Of a stretch of DNA of 64,000 bases, positions 16,649 to 25,724 are shown piece after piece; positions within the stretch are counted from its first letter, which is position 1, and the number at the start of each line of letters is the position of its first letter. The stretch is from NCBI RefSeq assembly GCF_003018255.1, contig NZ_CP027440.1. One strand, 5' to 3'. This DNA comes from Escherichia coli. GTDB lineage: Bacteria; Pseudomonadota; Gammaproteobacteria; Enterobacterales; Enterobacteriaceae. The notes beneath the pieces are model-generated. The model saw nothing but the letters and a program-made list of their open reading frames with translations, was not told where the DNA came from and ran no database searches. A program made the translations under genes and the position numbers.

Positions 16649-17077
16649 ATGGCGACACCTTCCTTATATGAAATGCTGACGTTCAGTTTCAGCGGCGAGT
16701 TACCGCTGGAACAGGTCAGTGAGCGGGATCAGCTTATCCTTTCCGTGATGGACAATATGCAACGCATTATCAACTGTCGGGCAGGCACACTGGCGCATTT
16801 GCCGGATTACGGTCTGCCGGATCTCAGCCTGATCCATCAGGGGATGGCTGCGGGTATTCATAGCCTGATGCGCCAGATTGAAGAAACGCTGCTGCGTTAT
16901 GAACCACGCCTGAATCAGATACAGGTGGAGTTACTGCCCCAGCCCGGTCCGGGGCATCTTAATTACCTGATCCACGCGCAGCTTCCCGATACCGGCTGGA
17001 TACGCTTTGATGGCGTATTTTCTCCGGAAGGACGAATTGTTCTGCGTCATCTCAAACAACAGGAGCGGGCGTACTGA
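16649..17077 (+). CDS. tssE: TssE (gp25-like) baseplate protein
   Basis: 142-aa protein of gp25/GPW25 size class. Stop overlaps the next gene start (TGATG). Confidence 0.75.
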   Translation: MATPSLYEMLTFSFSGELPLEQVSERDQLILSVMDNMQRIINCRAGTLAHLPDYGLPDLSLIHQGMAAGIHSLMRQIEETLLRYEPRLNQIQVELLPQPGPGHLNYLIHAQLPDTGWIRFDGVFSPEGRIVLRHLKQQERAY

Positions 17078-18453
17078 TGGCAAGTAACGCGAATTTTATC
17101 AGCCAGTTCGTCATGGGCGGCGATCCCTGTACTTATAAGGAATCCGGTGAACTGCAGGCTGAAATGAGTAAACTGACTCACCCGGCCCGACCGGATGTGG
17201 ACTGGCGTCAGGTGGAAAAACTCTGCCTCGCGCTGTTCCGGCAAAATGGCGTGGAACTACAGACGCTGGTCTGTTACGTGCTGGCAATAACCAGACGGCA
17301 GGGGCTGGCAGGGATGGCAGACGGACTCGGTTCACTGGATATACTGCTCCAGCGCTGGGCTGACTTCTGGCCGGTACAGGTACATTCCAGAATATCACTG
17401 CTCAGCTGGGTCACAGAAAAAATGCAGCAGGCACTGAGAACGCTGGATATTCAGTATCAGGATCTGCCGCAGATCTACCGTTGTGTACAGCATCTTTCCG
17501 CCATCGAAACCACGCTGCAACAGTGTGAACTGTGGCATATGACGAAGCTGGACGTATTGTCCGGGCAGTTTCGCAATGCGGCTCTGCGTCTGGAACGGCT
17601 GGCGCCTCAGGGAGCGGAAACCATTATCACTCCCCCTGAATTACCCCGCCGGGAAATGAATCAACCGAAAAAGTCAGAGGAAAGTCCACAGCCGGTTTTT
17701 GCAACCAGATCCGTTCAGCAAAACGATAAGGATGCCAGTCCACCCGTGCCATCCCCTGAAATCTCCCGGCAGCGGACATGGCCGATATTTATGGCCGGAA
17801 TGGTTGTGATGGCCGGTCTCGGCGGAACAGGATTATGGGGCTGGTCGCAGCTTAATCAGCCGGACGCGCTAATCCAGCGAATACAACTGTCTGTCATGCC
17901 GTTGCCGCAGTCGCTGGAGAGCGGCGAACTGGCAAAGCTGGATGTAAAGGATAAGGCGCTGCTGGCTCAGGACAGAACAATTGCGGCAAGTCAGATGCAA
18001 CTGGAGCAGTTAAACAAATTGCCTGCCCGCTGGCCACTGGAGCAGGGATATCGCCAGCTACGCCAGCTTGATGCCCTGTGGCCGGATAATCCTCAGGTCA
18101 GGGCGCTGAACGCGCAGTGGCGCAAACAGCGGGAGCTGAGCGCCCTGTCTGCTGAGGCACTGAATGGCTATGCTCAGGCGCAGAGCCAGCTACAGCGCCT
18201 GTCGGCGCAGCTGGATGCACTGGATGAACGTAAGGGGAGATATCTGACCGGTTCGGAACTAAAAACGGCGGTGTACGGCATCCGGCAGTCGTTAAAGGAG
18301 CCGCCGCTGGAAGAACTGCTTCGGCAACTGGAAGAGCAAAAACAGACCGGAGAGGTTTCGCCAACGCTGTTGACGCAAATTGATACCCGGTTAAATCAGT
18401 TGTTGAATCGCTATGTCATTTTACTGGATACGAAGGTGGAACAAAGTCAGTAA
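17077..18453 (+). CDS. ImpA_N-domain, membrane-anchored T6SS accessory protein (TagA/VasL-like)
   Basis: N-terminal ImpA_N-like region, one hydrophobic helix (WPIFMAGMVVMAGLGGTGLWGW), and a C-terminal Q/L/E/R-rich region with heptad-like character. Last gene of the + strand cluster. Confidence 0.6.
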   Translation: MASNANFISQFVMGGDPCTYKESGELQAEMSKLTHPARPDVDWRQVEKLCLALFRQNGVELQTLVCYVLAITRRQGLAGMADGLGSLDILLQRWADFWPVQVHSRISLLSWVTEKMQQALRTLDIQYQDLPQIYRCVQHLSAIETTLQQCELWHMTKLDVLSGQFRNAALRLERLAPQGAETIITPPELPRREMNQPKKSEESPQPVFATRSVQQNDKDASPPVPSPEISRQRTWPIFMAGMVVMAGLGGTGLWGWSQLNQPDALIQRIQLSVMPLPQSLESGELAKLDVKDKALLAQDRTIAASQMQLEQLNKLPARWPLEQGYRQLRQLDALWPDNPQVRALNAQWRKQRELSALSAEALNGYAQAQSQLQRLSAQLDALDERKGRYLTGSELKTAVYGIRQSLKEPPLEELLRQLEEQKQTGEVSPTLLTQIDTRLNQLLNRYVILLDTKVEQSQ

Positions 18454-18692: not shown

Positions 18693-18728
18693 AAACCGCA
18701 ATGTGTTCTACAAATTGCGGTTTTTTTG
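18693..18728 (+). terminator. Rho-independent terminator ending the T6SS operon
   Basis: Inverted repeat AAACCGCAAT / ATTGCGGTTT followed by TTTTTTT. Confidence 0.6.
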
Positions 18729-18753: not shown

Positions 18754-19710
18754 TCACAACACGTTTTTTATCTCCCTTCCTGCGAAGTAATCAATTATCG
18801 ACTGGGCAACGTGTATCCCGGTTTGCTGGTATGACTCAACGGTGGCGGCCGCGATATGCGGCGTTGTAATGATATTTTTGGCATGTAGCAGTGGGCTAAA
18901 TTGCGCCAACGGTTCAGAGCTAAACACATCCAGCGCCGCAAACACATTTCGTTCTTCAATCACCTGAAGTAAAGCGCCCTCATCCAGCAACTTTCCCCTT
19001 GCGGCATTGATGATCAGAGCACCATTGCGCATCATCGACAAATATTTATGACTAATGAAGTTCTCCAGCTCAGAAGAAAAAGGCAAAAGAACAATGATGA
19101 CATGCGACTGCATAAAGATATCTTCAATTGATACAAACTGAACTCCAGCTTTGTCAGCAACCTGATAGTCGGGTTGTTTGTCAAAAGCTAAAAGCTCAAC
19201 ATCAAAACCAGATAACCTTTTCGCCAGTGTTTTGCCAATATTGCCGTAGCCAAGCAGGCCAATACGTTTACCTTGTAACTCGCAGCCATGCGACTCACCC
19301 CAATAACCATTTTGCATTGCATGATAGCTACCGGGGATATTTCTCATGCTCGCAAAAATAAGACCGATGATAAATTCCGCGACTGCGTTTGAATTAATCC
19401 CAACAGCATTATTGACCACAATACCTGATTGTCGAGCCGTATGAAGATCAATATTATCAATCCCTGTCCCGAATCTCGATATTATTTTCACTCCTGGTAG
19501 TCGCGATAACGTATCCGCTTGATAACAATCTTTTCCGGCAATGACTGCGCAAATAGATTCTCGTAATACTGTGGATTCTGATTTAACCAGATGCTCCACA
19601 TTATTCTTGATAATAAGGTTAAAATGATTTTCTCTTAGCAGCTTGCTGGCAGAAACACAACGCGCTGAAAAGCTGGGAACGGTGACCAGAACGTTTTTCA
19701 TAGCTGACAC
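18754..19710 (-). CDS. D-isomer-specific 2-hydroxyacid dehydrogenase family protein
   Basis: 318 aa. NAD-binding motif GLLGYGNIGKTLAKRL. Low-GC gene. Confidence 0.7.
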   Translation of the reverse strand: MSAMKNVLVTVPSFSARCVSASKLLRENHFNLIIKNNVEHLVKSESTVLRESICAVIAGKDCYQADTLSRLPGVKIISRFGTGIDNIDLHTARQSGIVVNNAVGINSNAVAEFIIGLIFASMRNIPGSYHAMQNGYWGESHGCELQGKRIGLLGYGNIGKTLAKRLSGFDVELLAFDKQPDYQVADKAGVQFVSIEDIFMQSHVIIVLLPFSSELENFISHKYLSMMRNGALIINAARGKLLDEGALLQVIEERNVFAALDVFSSEPLAQFSPLLHAKNIITTPHIAAATVESYQQTGIHVAQSIIDYFAGREIKNVL

Positions 19711-19771
19711 TCACATCAATGAACGCCACCCCAAAAGATGGCGTGACCGGTTACTGTTTTATATTCTAAAA

Positions 19772-20368
19772 TTATGAGTTTGCTTTAATACCGAGCGCAC
19801 CTCCTGGATGATATAAGCCGAAATCAGCACGAGTAAACTTTTTCAATTCGGAGAGCGCAAGCGCCACCGCATCACCAACAACCAGAACGACTGTTGATGA
19901 GCATGACGGCGCTAAACCTAAATTATCCGCCTCACTTTTTACGGGAATTTCAACGGATAAATCACAACTTATCGCAAGCGATGAGCGATGACTGCGGGTA
20001 AAGGAGATCAAATAATTACCCATTTTTTTCAGACTAGGTAGTGTTGCCAGGATTTCTGTCGTCTCACCACTGTTTGAAATAAGAATAACAACATCATCTT
20101 TCGCCACCATCCCAAGATCGCCGTGTACGGCTTCAGTACCGTGAACAAAAAACGAGGGAGTTCCAGTGCTGGCAAATGTTGCGGCGAGTTTTCGGGCAAT
20201 AATACCGGACTTACCGACACCAATAAAAACAACTTTCCCCTGACAAGACTGTAATACTTTAATTAAATTTGCGACCTCCGAAAGGGGGGAATCAATAACT
20301 TCTTCAACTGCTTTATGTTCGTTACGCATAAAATGTTTAATGAGATGGATAAGATCCGTACTGTTCAT
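19772..20368 (-). CDS. SIS-domain sugar-phosphate isomerase (KpsF/GutQ-like, no CBS domains)
   Basis: 198 aa. SIS-like block VVFIGVGKSGIIARKLAATFASTGTPSFFVH...ILISNSGETTEIL. Confidence 0.65.
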   Translation of the reverse strand: MNSTDLIHLIKHFMRNEHKAVEEVIDSPLSEVANLIKVLQSCQGKVVFIGVGKSGIIARKLAATFASTGTPSFFVHGTEAVHGDLGMVAKDDVVILISNSGETTEILATLPSLKKMGNYLISFTRSHRSSLAISCDLSVEIPVKSEADNLGLAPSCSSTVVLVVGDAVALALSELKKFTRADFGLYHPGGALGIKANS

Positions 20369-20370
20369 TT

Positions 20371-21546
20371 TTATTTTCCTTGATTAATATTTTTAATTAC
20401 ACTCGCAAGACGCGTAAGCCCCATATATAATTTTTCTCGACCGCAGGCCAGGTTCAGACGAAGGTAGCCCTCCCCCTCCGTTCCATAGACATTCCCCGCC
20501 ATAATGCCCACTTTGCCTTCATGAATTAATCGACTGTAGAATTCATCAAAGGAATAACCAATAGCAGAGCAATCTATCCACGAAAAATAGCAACCATCAG
20601 CTGGCCTTACGATCAATTCTGGAGTATTTTCGTTCAGATACTGCTGGGTGAATTGAATGTTAGAGGCGATATGTGCCTTTAATGACTTTAACCATCCCTC
20701 ACATTCATTATAGGCAACAATGGTTGCAATTATATTCAGTACTGATGGGGAGTTTACGAAATCGCGATACCTCGATATCGTTCTGAACTTATGATTATAA
20801 TCCTCGTCAGTTGAAATCAGATACGATCCTGTTAGCGCAGGAACATTAAATGTTTTCGATATCGAGTTAAATACCACTACTTTTTCTTTTTTTATTTTAA
20901 GCGCGGATGTAAAGCTACGATTAAAAACAAAATCACTATGAATTTCATCTGAACATAACCAGACATTATGCCTTGTACAGCTTGTAGCGATTTTAAGCAG
21001 TTCTTCTTCCGACCAGACTGTTCCTGTCGGATTATGAGGATTACATAATAACACCATCTTTGCGCTTTTAATCTTAAGATCAAAATCTTGCCAGTTGATA
21101 GCGTAGCCCCCCTCATTTTTTATAATCAAAGAGGCTGTCAGAATATTTCGCTCGCTATGTTTAATTACATCAAAAAATGCATTATAGACAGGTGTAAAAA
21201 CGAGAATATTATCACCATGCGATGTCAATAACTCTATTGCCTTTGCAATAGAGTACATCACACTGGGGCTATAGGTTATCCATTCAGGTTTAATGTCTGT
21301 TTGATATTGTTGATGATACCAGTTTACTATCGCATTCAGATATTCACCATGTTGCCAACGACTGTACCCTAAAATCGGGTGTTCCAGGCGTTTTTTTAAT
21401 GCTCTGGTGATAGCGTCTGGTATCGGAAGATCCATATCTGAAATAGAGAAGGGTAATACATCTTTTACACCAAATCTGTCCTCGCAAAAGTCCCATTGGG
21501 TGCAATATGTTCCTTTACGGGAAATAGGAGTATTAAAAATATCCAT
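20371..21546 (-). CDS. PLP-dependent aminotransferase class I/II, MalY/PatB-like C-S lyase
   Basis: 391 aa. Motif CNPHNPTG and a lysine-containing SISKTFN block typical of this family. Confidence 0.7.
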   Translation of the reverse strand: MDIFNTPISRKGTYCTQWDFCEDRFGVKDVLPFSISDMDLPIPDAITRALKKRLEHPILGYSRWQHGEYLNAIVNWYHQQYQTDIKPEWITYSPSVMYSIAKAIELLTSHGDNILVFTPVYNAFFDVIKHSERNILTASLIIKNEGGYAINWQDFDLKIKSAKMVLLCNPHNPTGTVWSEEELLKIATSCTRHNVWLCSDEIHSDFVFNRSFTSALKIKKEKVVVFNSISKTFNVPALTGSYLISTDEDYNHKFRTISRYRDFVNSPSVLNIIATIVAYNECEGWLKSLKAHIASNIQFTQQYLNENTPELIVRPADGCYFSWIDCSAIGYSFDEFYSRLIHEGKVGIMAGNVYGTEGEGYLRLNLACGREKLYMGLTRLASVIKNINQGK

Positions 21547-23126
21547 CAGCGCATCCCCATGTAGTTATCCATATCCCTACGCAGGGCGATGACTTTAGTG
21601 CCGATAATGACTTGTAGGGTATTTTGATCAAGTTTAACAACCGCAATCCCGCCAGCTCTTTTTATTGCAACTTCATCAATCAATCCCATATCTGCGATTG
21701 TTAAACGTAAACGAGTTACGCAATTATCCAGTGACTTAATATTCTCTTTACCACCAAGTGCCTTAACCATCTGCTCCGCTGCTTGCAACTCTGATTTATC
21801 AAGAGTTGGGGTATCCGCTATAGCCGTATCTTCGTGAGCGTTCAGCGTGACAGGACTGGACTCTTCACGTCCTACGGTCATCAGGTTAAATTTGAGAATG
21901 GTCCAACGGAACACAAAGTAATAAATGAAGAAATAGGCCACTTCAACACACACCGCGATCGGCCAACCTGTTCTTGTGCCACGCAATACGCCAAAGCTAA
22001 TAAATTGAATCAGATCGCCAGTAAATCCCATCTTCACGCCCATATATGGCAAGACCATGTTGGCGAATCCATTCATAAAGGCATGGAAGACAAACAGCAG
22101 CGGACTGACAAATAAGAACAGAAATTCAATCGGTTCGCTGACGCCACCAATAATAACCGTAAGCACACCGGAAATAAGCAATGCTTTGATAGCCTTTCTG
22201 TTTTGAGCATGAGCAGTGCGATACATGGCCAGTGCAGCACCAGCCAGACCGTACTGAATCATCAGTTTGCCCTGCTCCATTTTCCCCGCCAAATCCAGCG
22301 GAATGACCGCATTCTCTTTGACGTACGCCATAAACATGTTCAGGGTGCCGTAATACTCTTCGCCGCCAATCACAGCCGAACCGCCGATTGGCGTAAAGCG
22401 GAACACTGACGTCACCAGATGGTTTAAGCCAAAAGGAATCGTCACACGTTCGGCAACTGCATAGAAGAAATAACCAACAGGACCGGAAGTTGATATCCAG
22501 TGGCCAATGAGCATGAAGAGATTGAAAAATGGCGGCCAGATAAAAGGAATGATCAGACCAAATCCACTCATCACAATCAGTGTAATGATAGGCACCAGAC
22601 GTGGGCCGCTATAAAAACCTAATGATTCTGGAATGCGTAAATTAACGATCTTTTTATACATGCTGGCGACTAATAACCCAGCAACAATTCCCCCTAACAC
22701 GCTGGTATTGTAGGACTGGATCCCCAGAATGATGTTTTGCCCATGTGTCGACATTTGGTCAGCAACGACCAATAAGTCGTGCTGTTTAAGATAAAAGTTC
22801 GTTCCCAGATGCATCGCCATAAAACCAATTAAGCCAGAAAAAGCACCATAGGCTTTATCCTCTTTATCTTTTAATAATCCTAAGGGAATCGCTATCGCAA
22901 ACAATACAGGTAAATTAACAAAGGCAAACAAACCAAGACTAACAATGAAATCAAGTATGGTTTTAATTATTGGAATAGCCAGAAATGGAATTAACTTTGC
23001 CATATCATCACTGGCTAAACCACTTCCCAGCCCTAGCATCATGCCACATACACTTAGCAGAGCAATGGGATACATAAATGCCTTCCCCAGGCTCTGAAAA
23101 AAACTCCAGGCTTTCTTTTGTTTCAT
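21546..23126 (-). CDS. PTS glucose-family EIICB component
   Basis: 526 aa. Polytopic membrane domain plus C-terminal EIIB with NCVTRLRL phosphorylation-site motif. Confidence 0.8.
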   Translation of the reverse strand: MKQKKAWSFFQSLGKAFMYPIALLSVCGMMLGLGSGLASDDMAKLIPFLAIPIIKTILDFIVSLGLFAFVNLPVLFAIAIPLGLLKDKEDKAYGAFSGLIGFMAMHLGTNFYLKQHDLLVVADQMSTHGQNIILGIQSYNTSVLGGIVAGLLVASMYKKIVNLRIPESLGFYSGPRLVPIITLIVMSGFGLIIPFIWPPFFNLFMLIGHWISTSGPVGYFFYAVAERVTIPFGLNHLVTSVFRFTPIGGSAVIGGEEYYGTLNMFMAYVKENAVIPLDLAGKMEQGKLMIQYGLAGAALAMYRTAHAQNRKAIKALLISGVLTVIIGGVSEPIEFLFLFVSPLLFVFHAFMNGFANMVLPYMGVKMGFTGDLIQFISFGVLRGTRTGWPIAVCVEVAYFFIYYFVFRWTILKFNLMTVGREESSPVTLNAHEDTAIADTPTLDKSELQAAEQMVKALGGKENIKSLDNCVTRLRLTIADMGLIDEVAIKRAGGIAVVKLDQNTLQVIIGTKVIALRRDMDNYMGMR

Positions 23127-23157: not shown

Positions 23158-23982
23158 TTAGTCCATTAATACTTTGGTACGAATAGAGAGATATAGTTTT
23201 TCTTCTAAAATTAATTCATATTTAAAAGTGGCATACAGATACCGTTCAATTTCATGAATTGCGCGCTGTAACAGGATGTCCTTTTCAAGAAACTGTTCAT
23301 AGATATCACCAATATCTTTCTGTTTTATTTTTTCATTGCATAACACGCGACTTGAAAAATATTTAAGGTGCATCATAAATCTGGAATAGTTAAATGAACT
23401 TCTGTCCACCTTTCTGTTATAAACAACTTCAATAAGCTCCGTGATTATTTGCGACAACTCAATAATCCGTACTGATTCATAATCAACTGAATTTTCATAA
23501 TTATTTAAAATATGCAATGCTATAAAACCAATCTCATCATCAGGAAGTTGAACGCTGAATTGCTCATTAATGATAGTTAATGCATCGCGACTTATCGCAT
23601 ACTCTGCTTTGTACAACGCTTTGATTTCATCAAGGAAAACATTATTAATTTGTATACCTGAAACTACTCGGGATATTGCATTCGAAATGTGATCCGCAAG
23701 AATCAATAGTAGCGATGGATTGAGATTTTTTTCGAGATTTTTCTCCGCATATTGCACTATTTTTTCGGCAACAAAAATATACTCAATATCCACATGTTCA
23801 ATCAATTTGTAGAGTTTATTTTTTTGTTCGTTTCTGACATAAAAAATCCGGTTAGCCGGATGTTCAGGGACCGACATTCCATATTTTTTGTTATAACCGA
23901 CGCCAGGTCCAGAAATGATAACCTCCTGTCCATTCATCGATGCCTGTACACAATTATTGTTCATGACTTTTTCGATGATCAT
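23158..23982 (-). CDS. BglG/LicT-family transcription antiterminator (CAT RNA-binding domain plus PRD domains)
   Basis: Start taken at MIIEKVMNNNCVQASMNGQEVIISGPGVGYNKK (CAT domain signature) with SD GGAG 7 nt upstream. The track ORF extends 19 codons further upstream, into the leader hairpin. Confidence 0.75.
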   Translation of the reverse strand: MIIEKVMNNNCVQASMNGQEVIISGPGVGYNKKYGMSVPEHPANRIFYVRNEQKNKLYKLIEHVDIEYIFVAEKIVQYAEKNLEKNLNPSLLLILADHISNAISRVVSGIQINNVFLDEIKALYKAEYAISRDALTIINEQFSVQLPDDEIGFIALHILNNYENSVDYESVRIIELSQIITELIEVVYNRKVDRSSFNYSRFMMHLKYFSSRVLCNEKIKQKDIGDIYEQFLEKDILLQRAIHEIERYLYATFKYELILEEKLYLSIRTKVLMD

Positions 23983-23993
23983 TCCATGACTCC

Positions 23994-24075
23994 AAAAAAA
24001 AAGGCAAGGCACGTCAGAAGTAATAATTACTTCAAACATTGCCTTGCCTGATTTAACAGTTACAAGATGATTAAC
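23994..24075 (-). promoter_or_regulatory. Leader intrinsic terminator with overlapping RAT-like element upstream of the antiterminator gene
   Basis: On the minus strand: AGGCAAGGCA, a loop containing the palindrome GAAGTAATAATTACTTC, TGCCTTGCCT, then T9, directly abutting the SD. Upstream TTGTAACTGTTAAATCAGGCAAGGCA resembles the RAT consensus. Confidence 0.5.
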
Positions 24076-24239
24076 TAATGCGTATACATTACACGGAATT
24101 GTGCTTAATTAAAGAGATGGTCGGCTTATTTTTCAAGCCGACATTCAAATATTCGACATCAGTCACAAAACCAGCATCTAATATTCATGAAAATGTTATC
24201 TATTCAACGAAATATAAATTCATTGAATAAATAAAAACA

Positions 24240-25493
24240 TCATCCCCTTCTCGCCAGCGTCGCCCCATCGGCAAAATACGCTTTAATCCCCGCAAGAATA
24301 GACTCCGCAACTTCCTGCTGGAAAGTCGCCGTTTTCAGTTTACGTTCTTCCTCAACGTTACTGATAAACGCCGTTTCGACCAGAATGGAGGGAATATCTG
24401 GTGCCTTTAGTACGGCAAACCCGGCCTGTTCAACTTGATTTTTATGCAGCTTGTTGATTTTACCGAGCTTATTCAGCACCGCTTTACCAAACTTCAGGCT
24501 GTCGGCAATGGTCAGCGACTGCACCATATCGAACATGGTGTGGTCGACATAGCGGTCACCGCTTTTGCTCACGCCACCAATCAAGTCCGAGGCGTTCTGG
24601 GTTTGTGCCAGATATTTTGCCGCAGTACTGGTTGCACCTTTGGTTGAGAGCGCAAACACAGAGGAACCGCTCGGCTGACGACTGGTAAAGGCGTCGGCAT
24701 GGATAGAGACAAACAGGTCAGCACGCTGTTTCTGGGCTTTTGCTACGCGCACTTGCAACGGAATGAAGATGTCTTCATTGCGCGTCATGTACACCTTCAT
24801 ATTGCCCTCTTTCTCGATCAGAGAGCGCAGACGGCGAGCTATTTGCAATACCACGTCTTTTTCGCGCGTTTTGTATTTCCCCACCGCACCGGAGTCTTCG
24901 CCACCGTGGCCAGGGTCAAGCATAATGACAATAGGACGATCGCGCCCTGCTTTACCCGGTTGTGGACCACTTTGTGCTGGCGGCACCTGCTTTTCGAGGT
25001 CGCCTTTGTTGTAATCCTCCAGCAGCGCCAGCAGCGGGTCCTGCATATCCTGTGCATTGGCCGGATAGAGGTCCATCACCAGACGCTCTTTAAACCCGGC
25101 GACCGGCGCAAGGGCAAACAGCTGCGGTTTTACGTTTTGCTTTAATTCAAAAACCATACGTACGGTTTGCGGGTCAAATTGCCCGACGCGCGCCGACTTG
25201 ATGAACGGGTCGTCAGCGCGGATTTGCGCAGCCATCCCCTTGAGTACCGAGTTCAGGTTTACATCTTCGATATCCACCACCACGCGTTCAGGATTACTCA
25301 ACGCGAACTGCTTATATTTCAGCTGACGATTTGATTCTACCGTCACGCGGGTGTAGCTGGACGCAGGCCAGACGCGCACCGCCACGACCTGGCTGACCGC
25401 AGCCAGGCTGACCTGACTTACGCTCAATAGCCACATGGCACCCGCGCCTTGCAGTAAACGACGACGGCTGATTGCAGTGTTGGATCCTGACAT
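24240..25493 (-). CDS. amiC: N-acetylmuramoyl-L-alanine amidase AmiC
   Basis: 417 aa. Tat signal [15 protein letters not shown]. Colinear with K-12 amiC-argA. Confidence 0.9.
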
Positions 25494-25724
25494 GCCTCTC
25501 CCGAGCAAAAGAAATCTAAGCTGTGTAACAAGTAAACGACCAATTTGACCGGAAACTTTAGCGAAAGACGCATAATCTGTCATCTATAAAACGGTAAACA
25601 TTCTTTTTATATTCACGGTATTACTGATAAAAAACTCGCTCCCGCATAAAATTTACACTTGCACCCTGCGAAAAAACAGAATAAAAATACAATAATTTCG
25701 AATAATCATGCAAAGAGGTGTACC

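Follow-up and report, generated by a model that had tools for sequence, protein, structure and literature searches.

In the 64,000-nt stretch of Escherichia coli DNA analysed here (hereafter the window), the 257-nt spacer separating amiC (24240–25583) from a five-gene cluster carries, on the minus strand, a leader in which a ribonucleic antiterminator (RAT) hairpin overlaps an intrinsic terminator. The first gene of the cluster (23158–23982, minus strand) encodes a 274-residue protein with a CAT RNA-binding domain followed by PRD1 and PRD2, and we conclude with good confidence that the leader controls the operon through an antiterminator protein acting on transcription, in the manner of BglG, SacY and LicT. 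This is a textbook mechanism; the instance is undescribed as far as the literature searched goes, and its RAT is mildly unusual. Around these elements we infer RNA binding by the antiterminator, control of its activity by phosphorylation through the phosphotransferase system (PTS) permease EIICB and HPr, an inducing sugar and a promoter.

Folding places the terminator in a 48-nt stem-loop (24002–24049, minus strand). Its outer stem of 10 bp (AGGCAAGGCA/UGCCUUGCCU), with the 5′ arm AGGCAAGGCA at 24049–24040 and the 3′ arm TGCCTTGCCT at 24011–24002, continues into a middle stem of 4 bp and an inner one of 7 bp (GAAGUAA/UUACUUC), the inner palindrome being GAAGTAATTATTACTTC (24033–24017). A U-tract of nine U (23994–24002, minus strand) comes next, and the first T of this run (24002) additionally pairs with A24049. 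Right after the U-tract, 7 nt before the ATG, stands a GGAG Shine-Dalgarno sequence (23990–23993, minus strand) that is kept in all the leaders compared below. Folding of the 62-nt terminator segment yields −28.1 kcal/mol where its dinucleotide shuffles give −10.4 ± 2.6 (z = −6.89), none of 200 doing as well, and the 136-nt region around it gives a folding z of −4.65. A simple terminator scanner made no call at the 24049–24002 hairpin, which we attribute to the 28-nt interior between the outer arms exceeding its 3–8 nt loop rule. A first-pass annotation of the window had given the minus-strand order of hairpin, nine U, Shine-Dalgarno sequence and ATG, and each element is where it was placed; among the sequences it quoted, the arms and the RAT-like string TTGTAACTGTTAAATCAGGCAAGGCA (24065–24040) are correct and the inner palindrome is one base wrong (GAAGTAATAATTACTTC for GAAGTAATTATTACTTC).

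The RAT is a 26-nt hairpin, UCUUGUAACUGUUAAAUCAGGCAAGG, at 24042–24067 (minus strand), identified by folding, pattern and covariance model; the RAT string of the leader reads CTTGTAACTGTTAAATCAGGCAAG. Its core, UUGUAACUG-UUAAAU-CAGGCAA, matches RATs of the BglG/LicT/SacY type, with the two short helices, the asymmetric loop U7-N8-A9/G22 and the sequence UUGUnACyG-(loop)-CrGGCAA of that class. The lower stem comprises U2.G27, C3-G26, U4-A25, U5-A24 and G6-C23, the internal loop U7, A8 and A9 opposite G22, and the upper stem C10-G21, U11-A20 and G12-C19, beneath a top loop of UUAAAU. In isolation the 26 nt fold at −6.2/−6.3 kcal/mol, and canonical RATs at −3.0 to −7.2 kcal/mol. Eight nt (24049–24042) belong both to the 3′ strand of the RAT and to the 5′ arm of the more stable terminator. 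Enforcing the RAT costs the leader about 10 kcal/mol, and the inner hairpin that then survives has no terminator geometry, because 15 unpaired nt separate it from the U-tract. Folding thus bears out the earlier proposal that RAT and terminator exclude each other.

The likeness to known RATs was scored with two descriptions of the element. From the K-12 genome we took both bgl RATs (t1, GGATTGTTACTGCATTCGCAGGCAAAACC; t2, GGATTGTTACCGCACTAAGCGGGCAAAACC), whose common core is covered by the loose pattern TTGTNACNR-N4-8-YNGGCAA. This bgl-derived pattern matches the window once, at 24065–24044 (minus strand), where 0.04 matches are expected by chance. We also fetched 75 loci with relatives of the antiterminator, one genome per species. 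The pattern lies upstream of the antiterminator ATG in 52 of the 75, on the coding strand and 76–180 nt away, so that a RAT ahead of the antiterminator gene is the norm for the family; in 21 loci of this set it is repeated just past the gene, and on the opposite strand there are no matches in 493 kb. A covariance model (R1) was then built from 47 distinct canonical RATs drawn from the relative loci and K-12 bgl, none of them from the E. coli subfamily. On the known fold these RATs are paired in 100% of cells, with U-A to C-G and G-C to A-U covariation. The top match of R1 in the window is the same site, 24065–24044 (18.3 bits, E about 0.002, filters off), which aligns at canonical positions 4–25/27 only of the 29-nt model. 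Its second match, at 19171–19209 on the plus strand (14.7 bits, E = 0.027), is bounded by GGGUUGUU...CAAAACC, contains an insert of 24 nt and lies on the wrong strand within the dehydrogenase gene of the cluster; it is most likely due to chance. Neither pattern nor R1 searches find a second RAT in the window, and the 31-nt gap before the EIICB gene has no room for a RAT and terminator, so one checkpoint governs the whole operon.

Orthologous operons with the same gene order are present in Escherichia whittamii, in the divergent E. coli strain E69, in two Citrobacter genomes and matching metagenome contigs, and in Atlantibacter hermannii; further ones lie on an unassigned contig (L010) and in Enterobacter sp. 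ENT03 and matching contigs (43% protein identity). The comparison rests on 12 leaders from 5–6 lineages in three genomic neighbourhoods. A degenerate copy on a 1.9-kb read-assembly contig (L011) was judged unreliable and left out. The order RAT, stem-loop, U-tract, Shine-Dalgarno sequence and ATG is kept in 12/12 leaders, with the U-tract ending 11–13 nt before the ATG and numbering nine U in the E. coli, Citrobacter, Atlantibacter and L010 lineages and seven in the Enterobacter lineage. The stem-loop described above is also the RNAalifold consensus fold of the 12 leaders: 96.7% of its cells are paired, four pairs are double-changed (11 cells), none of 500 shuffles reaches the observed covariation or pairing, and all slid controls fall to 34–56% pairing. 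In Atlantibacter and the Enterobacter lineage the terminators differ largely in sequence from that of E. coli and fold equally well (−26 to −30 kcal/mol). The RAT, with 96.9% of its cells paired, carries one double change, from G12-C19 to A12-U19 in the Enterobacter lineage, which preserves the upper helix, and R1 matches the same site in the orthologous loci except the two of the Enterobacter lineage. Across the 12 leaders the RAT folds at −5 to −6.6 kcal/mol and the terminator at −25 to −30, with U-tracts of 7–9. The terminator being far more stable than the RAT, a protein is needed to hold the latter in such systems, as is established for LicT and SacY (PMC5393181, PMC3575810). All E. coli variants inspected have the same RAT, including an O111:H8 type of 94% identity whose terminator has a single change, converting a G.U to an A-U pair.

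These comparisons bear directly on the simplest alternative, that the hairpin is a constitutive intrinsic terminator ending amiC or insulating the island and that the RAT-like sequence is coincidental. Homology to K-12 stops exactly at the amiC stop codon (24238–24242); the K-12 amiC terminator (AAAAAGGCGCTGAATGGCGCTTTTTT), which sits directly after that codon, has been lost from island-bearing strains, with island DNA in its place, and the 24049–23994 hairpin is the first convincing terminator downstream of amiC. Consequently, amiC read-through may run into the leader. Nevertheless we regard a plain terminator as very improbable. The gene upstream of the operon is amiC in Escherichia and Atlantibacter, a gene for an LTXXQ protein in the Citrobacter type and an AP-endonuclease-family gene in the Enterobacter type, and RAT and terminator accompany the operon behind each of them, indicating that the leader belongs to the operon and not to amiC. 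Furthermore, the RAT core is identical in 10 of the 12 leaders while the flanks diverge, and it is the best match in 64 kb for the independently built R1. Finally, the U-tract ends only 11 nt before the ATG; no promoter can fit into this space, and the operon must therefore be transcribed through the hairpin. A secondary role as amiC terminator would be compatible with antitermination.

The antiterminator gene starts at the ATG at 23982, as the first-pass annotation had preferred over an open reading frame start at 24039: LicT and GlcT fragments in the PDB align from residue 2, RefSeq has the same start, and GGAG stands 7 nt upstream. The alternative ATG at 24039 lies inside the terminator, lacks a usable Shine-Dalgarno sequence and is ACG in Citrobacter MGH106, the L006 locus and Atlantibacter. 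The hairpin abuts the Shine-Dalgarno sequence, and folding of the 136-nt region pairs the surroundings of the start codon with a segment further upstream, which could point to a mainly post-transcriptional stem-loop that sets the stability or translation of the antiterminator mRNA. We consider this highly improbable, given a GC-rich 10-bp stem followed by nine U, the geometry of a textbook terminator with 7–9 U in all lineages, and a Shine-Dalgarno sequence that is itself outside the hairpin. A second terminator-like hairpin, ATCCGGCTAACCGGAT followed by TTTTTAT, occurs within the CAT coding region (23846–23861, minus strand); it is probably a chance feature, since it is not kept in E. whittamii, strain E69, Citrobacter or Atlantibacter.

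The first-pass annotation had also called the leader riboswitch-like, and this label did not hold. Mutually exclusive folds within a 5′ leader are indeed what a metabolite-binding riboswitch would offer, with a small molecule switching the terminator directly. However, the only structure competing with the terminator is the 26-nt hairpin, which bears a protein-binding RAT signature and is judged too small and simple for an aptamer, and an RNA-binding-type antiterminator is encoded immediately downstream. A riboswitch is thus almost certainly not the explanation. An Rfam scan of 23700–24400 returned no family, riboswitch or other, at E ≤ 10, and RF03530 (bglG-cis-reg) stayed below its 80-bit gathering threshold; for the latter family the negative is uninformative, as RF03530 scores even the textbook K-12 bgl leaders at only 22–24 bits.

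The protein encoded directly downstream, within the same operon, has the expected CAT-PRD1-PRD2 architecture. Pfam assigns CAT_RBD to residues 1–55, a PRD to 73–160 and a weak PRD to 180–251; the best NCBIfam models are LicT (225.7 bits) and GlcT (179.2 bits), both under their equivalog cut-offs, and the PDB matches are LicT (1TLV, 6TWR, 1H99, 1L1C) and GlcT (3RIO). LicT contacts RNA through residues 5–10, Gly26, Arg27, Phe31 and Gln32 (PMC3105407). Here K5, N8-N10 and G25 (LicT G26) are conserved, and three positions are substituted: Arg27 by Pro26 (Ala in the Enterobacter lineage), Phe31 by Tyr30 (Tyr or Phe in the subfamily) and Gln32 by Asn31, Asn being found at this last position in SacT and SacY (PMC3105407). 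A CAT motif, SG(P/A)GVG(Y/F)N, is specific to the subfamily. Of the four phosphorylatable PRD histidines of the family, two in each PRD, His98, His157 and His205 are conserved. The Enterobacter lineage also has the fourth (LicT His269, in LYLTIHI), whereas E. coli, Citrobacter, Atlantibacter and L010 have Arg268 at this place (LYLSIRT; codon at 23179–23181); Arg268 may imply altered HPr-dependent control. The second gene of the operon (21546–23126, minus strand) encodes a 526-residue EIICB of the MalX/PtsG family, which carries the EIIB active-site motif CVTRLR with Cys469 and, by analogy with related systems, is the presumed sugar sensor that phosphorylates the antiterminator.

Could the RAT serve mainly another antiterminator, such as BglG, so that the leader reports cross-talk instead of autoregulation? 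Such cross-talk of BglG-family proteins with non-cognate RATs is on record for B. subtilis (PMC1635312, PMC3105407), and the RAT core is common to the bgl RATs. Against this, the window RAT has neither the lower helix nor the lower loop, both of which are present in all 47 canonical RATs, the two bgl RATs included; the helix is paired as GG/CC in 45 of them and as AG/CU in two. In addition, the adjacent protein is only 30% identical to BglG and has the subfamily-specific CAT motif, and RAT, CAT-PRD gene and EIICB gene are inherited as one block in every lineage. We therefore view service to BglG or a similar protein as improbable and favour control by the operon's own antiterminator.

Several observations weigh against antitermination by this protein. 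The GG/CC lower helix (G1G2/C28C29) and the lower internal loop (N3/N26-A27) are absent from the window RAT, so that the RAT resemblance noted earlier, just upstream of and overlapping the 5′ arm, stands for the core (single pattern match, top R1 match) and not for a fully canonical element. In the LicT complex the second CAT monomer makes contact at this lower loop. On the protein side, LicT Arg27, which reads the lower loop of the RAT and matters for RAT binding, is replaced by Pro or Ala here; the same position is Pro in SacT and Ala in SacY (PMC3105407). The window RAT scores about 18 bits with R1, compared with about 40 for the bgl RATs, which are in its training set, and the Enterobacter-lineage RAT is not listed by R1 at default filters. 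Covariation of the RAT within the subfamily comes from a single lineage, and in the Enterobacter lineage RAT and terminator overlap by 4–6 nt only, so exclusivity is weaker there. Lastly, a scan for consensus σ70 promoters found no site in the spacer between amiC and the antiterminator gene.

Throughout the subfamily the lower part of the RAT reads (A/U)(U/A)C...G(G/A)CA with C3-G26 paired, and U2 pairs with G27, its partner in Citrobacter and Atlantibacter being A27. Inspection of the leaders revealed no conserved substitute for the lower helix. A longer helix with pairs such as A1-U31 and C0-G32, which E. coli can form and which would bring the RAT back to the canonical 29 nt, was rejected, as by inspection these pairs are not kept in Citrobacter or Atlantibacter. 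At the sequence level the loss of the lower loop in the RNA and the loss of Arg27 in the protein are coherent. It is possible, though doubtful, that recognition itself is altered, a CAT dimer binding this 'half-canonical' RAT, without lower helix or loop, asymmetrically and being matched to it by the Arg27 to Pro/Ala change and, in the E. coli clade, by the change of the fourth PRD histidine to Arg. If true, this would insulate the malX island operon from BglG cross-talk, possibly also from HPr-dependent control, and would make the element a minimal RAT that answers to a sugar signal with a link to extraintestinal virulence.

We propose that control of the operon would proceed as follows. Transcription would begin somewhere upstream of 24067, and the nascent RNA would first offer the weak RAT hairpin (24067–24042). 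Unless held, the RAT would lose its 3′ strand to the terminator (24049–24002 plus nine U), and RNA polymerase would then release a short leader transcript just ahead of the ribosome-binding site. With active antiterminator present, a CAT-domain dimer would bind and stabilise the RAT, withholding about 8 nt of the terminator 5′ arm and allowing read-through into the five genes, for the antiterminator, the MalX-like EIICB, the MalY/PatB lyase, the SIS-domain protein and the dehydrogenase. By family analogy, in the absence of sugar EIICB would phosphorylate and inactivate the antiterminator on PRD1 His98/His157, and sugar transport would drain the phosphate, leaving the antiterminator active. The antiterminator gene lies downstream of its own RAT and terminator, confirming the self-inclusive arrangement that had been read from the sequence; because the regulator gene is behind its own terminator, induction would be a positive feedback loop dependent on basal read-through.

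A start anywhere upstream of 24067 is compatible with this model. Alignment of the upstream region reveals three conserved blocks, at 24167–24152, 24142–24120 and 24091–24081 (TAnnGT plus TATAC). The last falls within a candidate weak promoter (24081–24114, minus strand), suggested by a block conserved across lineages in different contexts, with TAATGT (24091–24086) or TATACG (24086–24081) as possible −10 element, a T-rich −35 region (24114–24103) and a predicted start at about 24079–24074. The first contains a candidate CRP-like site (TGTGACTGATGTCGAA, 24152–24167, minus strand) in which TGTGA-N6-TC is kept in most lineages; it is degenerate in two Citrobacter genomes (TGTGG, TGTGAG) and lies some 80–85 nt upstream of the candidate start, a distance that fits neither class I nor class II cleanly. 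This half-palindrome is a possible catabolite-control site. Between the two, a hairpin, GTCGGCTT-GAAAAAT-AAGCCGAC (24120–24142, minus strand), is followed by a poor T-tract; the hairpin is kept in E. whittamii with another stem sequence (GCCAGA/TCTGGC) and is weaker in E69, and it may serve as an insulator or stand in for the lost amiC terminator. In E. coli ES7 (locus L090, NZ_CM184333.1) an IS5-like element, ISEc68, is inserted at TTAG about 8–11 nt upstream of the RAT (equivalent to about 24075–24078), severing the native upstream region and leaving RAT and terminator intact. The arrangement is reminiscent of the activation of the bgl operon by insertion sequences.

Beyond the antiterminator and EIICB genes the operon comprises, all on the minus strand, genes for a MalY/PatB-family pyridoxal phosphate-dependent C-S lyase (20371–21546, 391 residues), a short SIS-domain protein resembling sugar-phosphate isomerases (19772–20368, 198 residues), which is a truncated KpsF/GutQ type without CBS domains, and, last in the cluster, a D-2-hydroxyacid/phosphoglycerate dehydrogenase-like protein (18754–19710; 315 residues in RefSeq, a slightly shorter call). 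No EIIA is encoded in the operon (18754–23126), and its first four genes are kept down to 43% protein identity in Enterobacter. About 35 nt past the dehydrogenase stop codon a hairpin, CCGCAATTTGTAGAACACATTGCGG followed by TTTGT (about 18696–18720, minus strand), is a candidate terminator for the end of the operon. Type VI secretion genes adjoin the far side of the operon, starting with a TssA/VasL-like gene (17077–18453, plus strand, and beyond); strain LF82 additionally carries tssE, tssJ and tssG beside it, as expected for PAI-metV. The K-12 metZWV tRNA genes are likewise replaced here by island DNA, and there is no tRNA gene in the 64-kb window.

The five-gene cluster corresponds to c3405-c3410 of the pathogenicity island (PAI) PAI-CFT073-metV of strain CFT073 (PMC2831201). 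The window DNA is B2-like E. coli, with 99.9% identity to DETEC-S792 and 98.4% to LF82 over the 1.2 kb compared, and the leader is found in 1688 of 5426 complete E. coli genomes, among them Nissle 1917 and LF82. The primers for the extraintestinal pathogenic E. coli marker 'malX (PAI)' map to this operon: RPAi f at 23281–23260 (minus strand, no mismatches) and RPAi r at 22360–22381 (plus strand, one mismatch), with a predicted product of 922 bp running from the 3′ end of the antiterminator gene to the 5′ half of the EIICB gene. RPAi f/r are the widely used 'malX, PAI marker' primers of Johnson and Stell 2000 (as cited in PMC12058657). Gating by RAT and terminator would give a direct way to the inducing sugar of this locus, whose sole use has long been that of a virulence marker. 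Our search found no paper on the leader or on the substrate or regulation of the operon; the site may already be listed in a 2015 RAT search of K-12 and uropathogenic E. coli genomes by Gordon et al. (as cited in PMC12591593).

The leader can be set beside several known systems. In the bglGFB operon of K-12, as here, the antiterminator gene is preceded by a RAT that overlaps an intrinsic terminator (t1), lies in this way behind a terminator of its own and is followed by a PTS permease gene, and the RAT core UUGU-N-AC-Y-G...C-R-GGCAA is shared; the overlap, by reading, is about 5 nt at bgl t1 versus 8 nt here. BglG also lacks the fourth PRD histidine, with Asn in its C-terminal ...FLAINIERV... 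(aligned by eye, the BLASTP alignment having fallen short). In contrast, bgl carries another RAT-terminator pair (t2) between bglG and bglF, where the 31-nt gap here has none, and the bgl RATs have a GGA...AACC lower helix and loop where C3-G26 is paired here. BglG and the present antiterminator share 30% identity, and the bgl permease is a beta-glucoside EIIBCA whereas here it is an EIICB of the glucose/maltose family. In this latter respect the GlcT-ptsG system of B. subtilis is similar, coupling an antiterminator, the second-best NCBIfam match, to a glucose-family PTS permease. The ptsG RAT and terminator presumably lie between glcT and ptsG, not upstream of glcT. In its lower loop the ptsG RAT, too, differs from the other RATs (PMC1635312).

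With the B. subtilis antiterminators LicT (licS, bglPH), SacY (sacB) and SacT (sacPA) the leader shares the RAT core and the overlap of RAT and terminator, and LicT is the best protein match; like the protein here, SacT has Pro and SacY Ala at the LicT Arg27 position (PMC3105407). Their RATs differ in that the lower loop (positions 3, 26 and 27) is a key determinant of specificity (PMC1635312, PMC3105407); here a C-G pair closes this loop, and the GG/CC helix beneath it is lacking. Among described systems, nagY-nagE of E. faecalis has the closest architecture, with the antiterminator gene first and the PTS gene second (PMC9981650). There too, the antiterminator gene has in its 5′ untranslated region one RAT of poorly canonical form, which overlaps a rho-independent terminator kept by compensatory changes (PMC9981650). 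E. faecalis belongs to another phylum, its sugar is N-acetylglucosamine and the downstream genes differ; autoregulation and NagY binding were shown there by experiment (PMC9981650), whereas for the E. coli leader we infer them from sequence.

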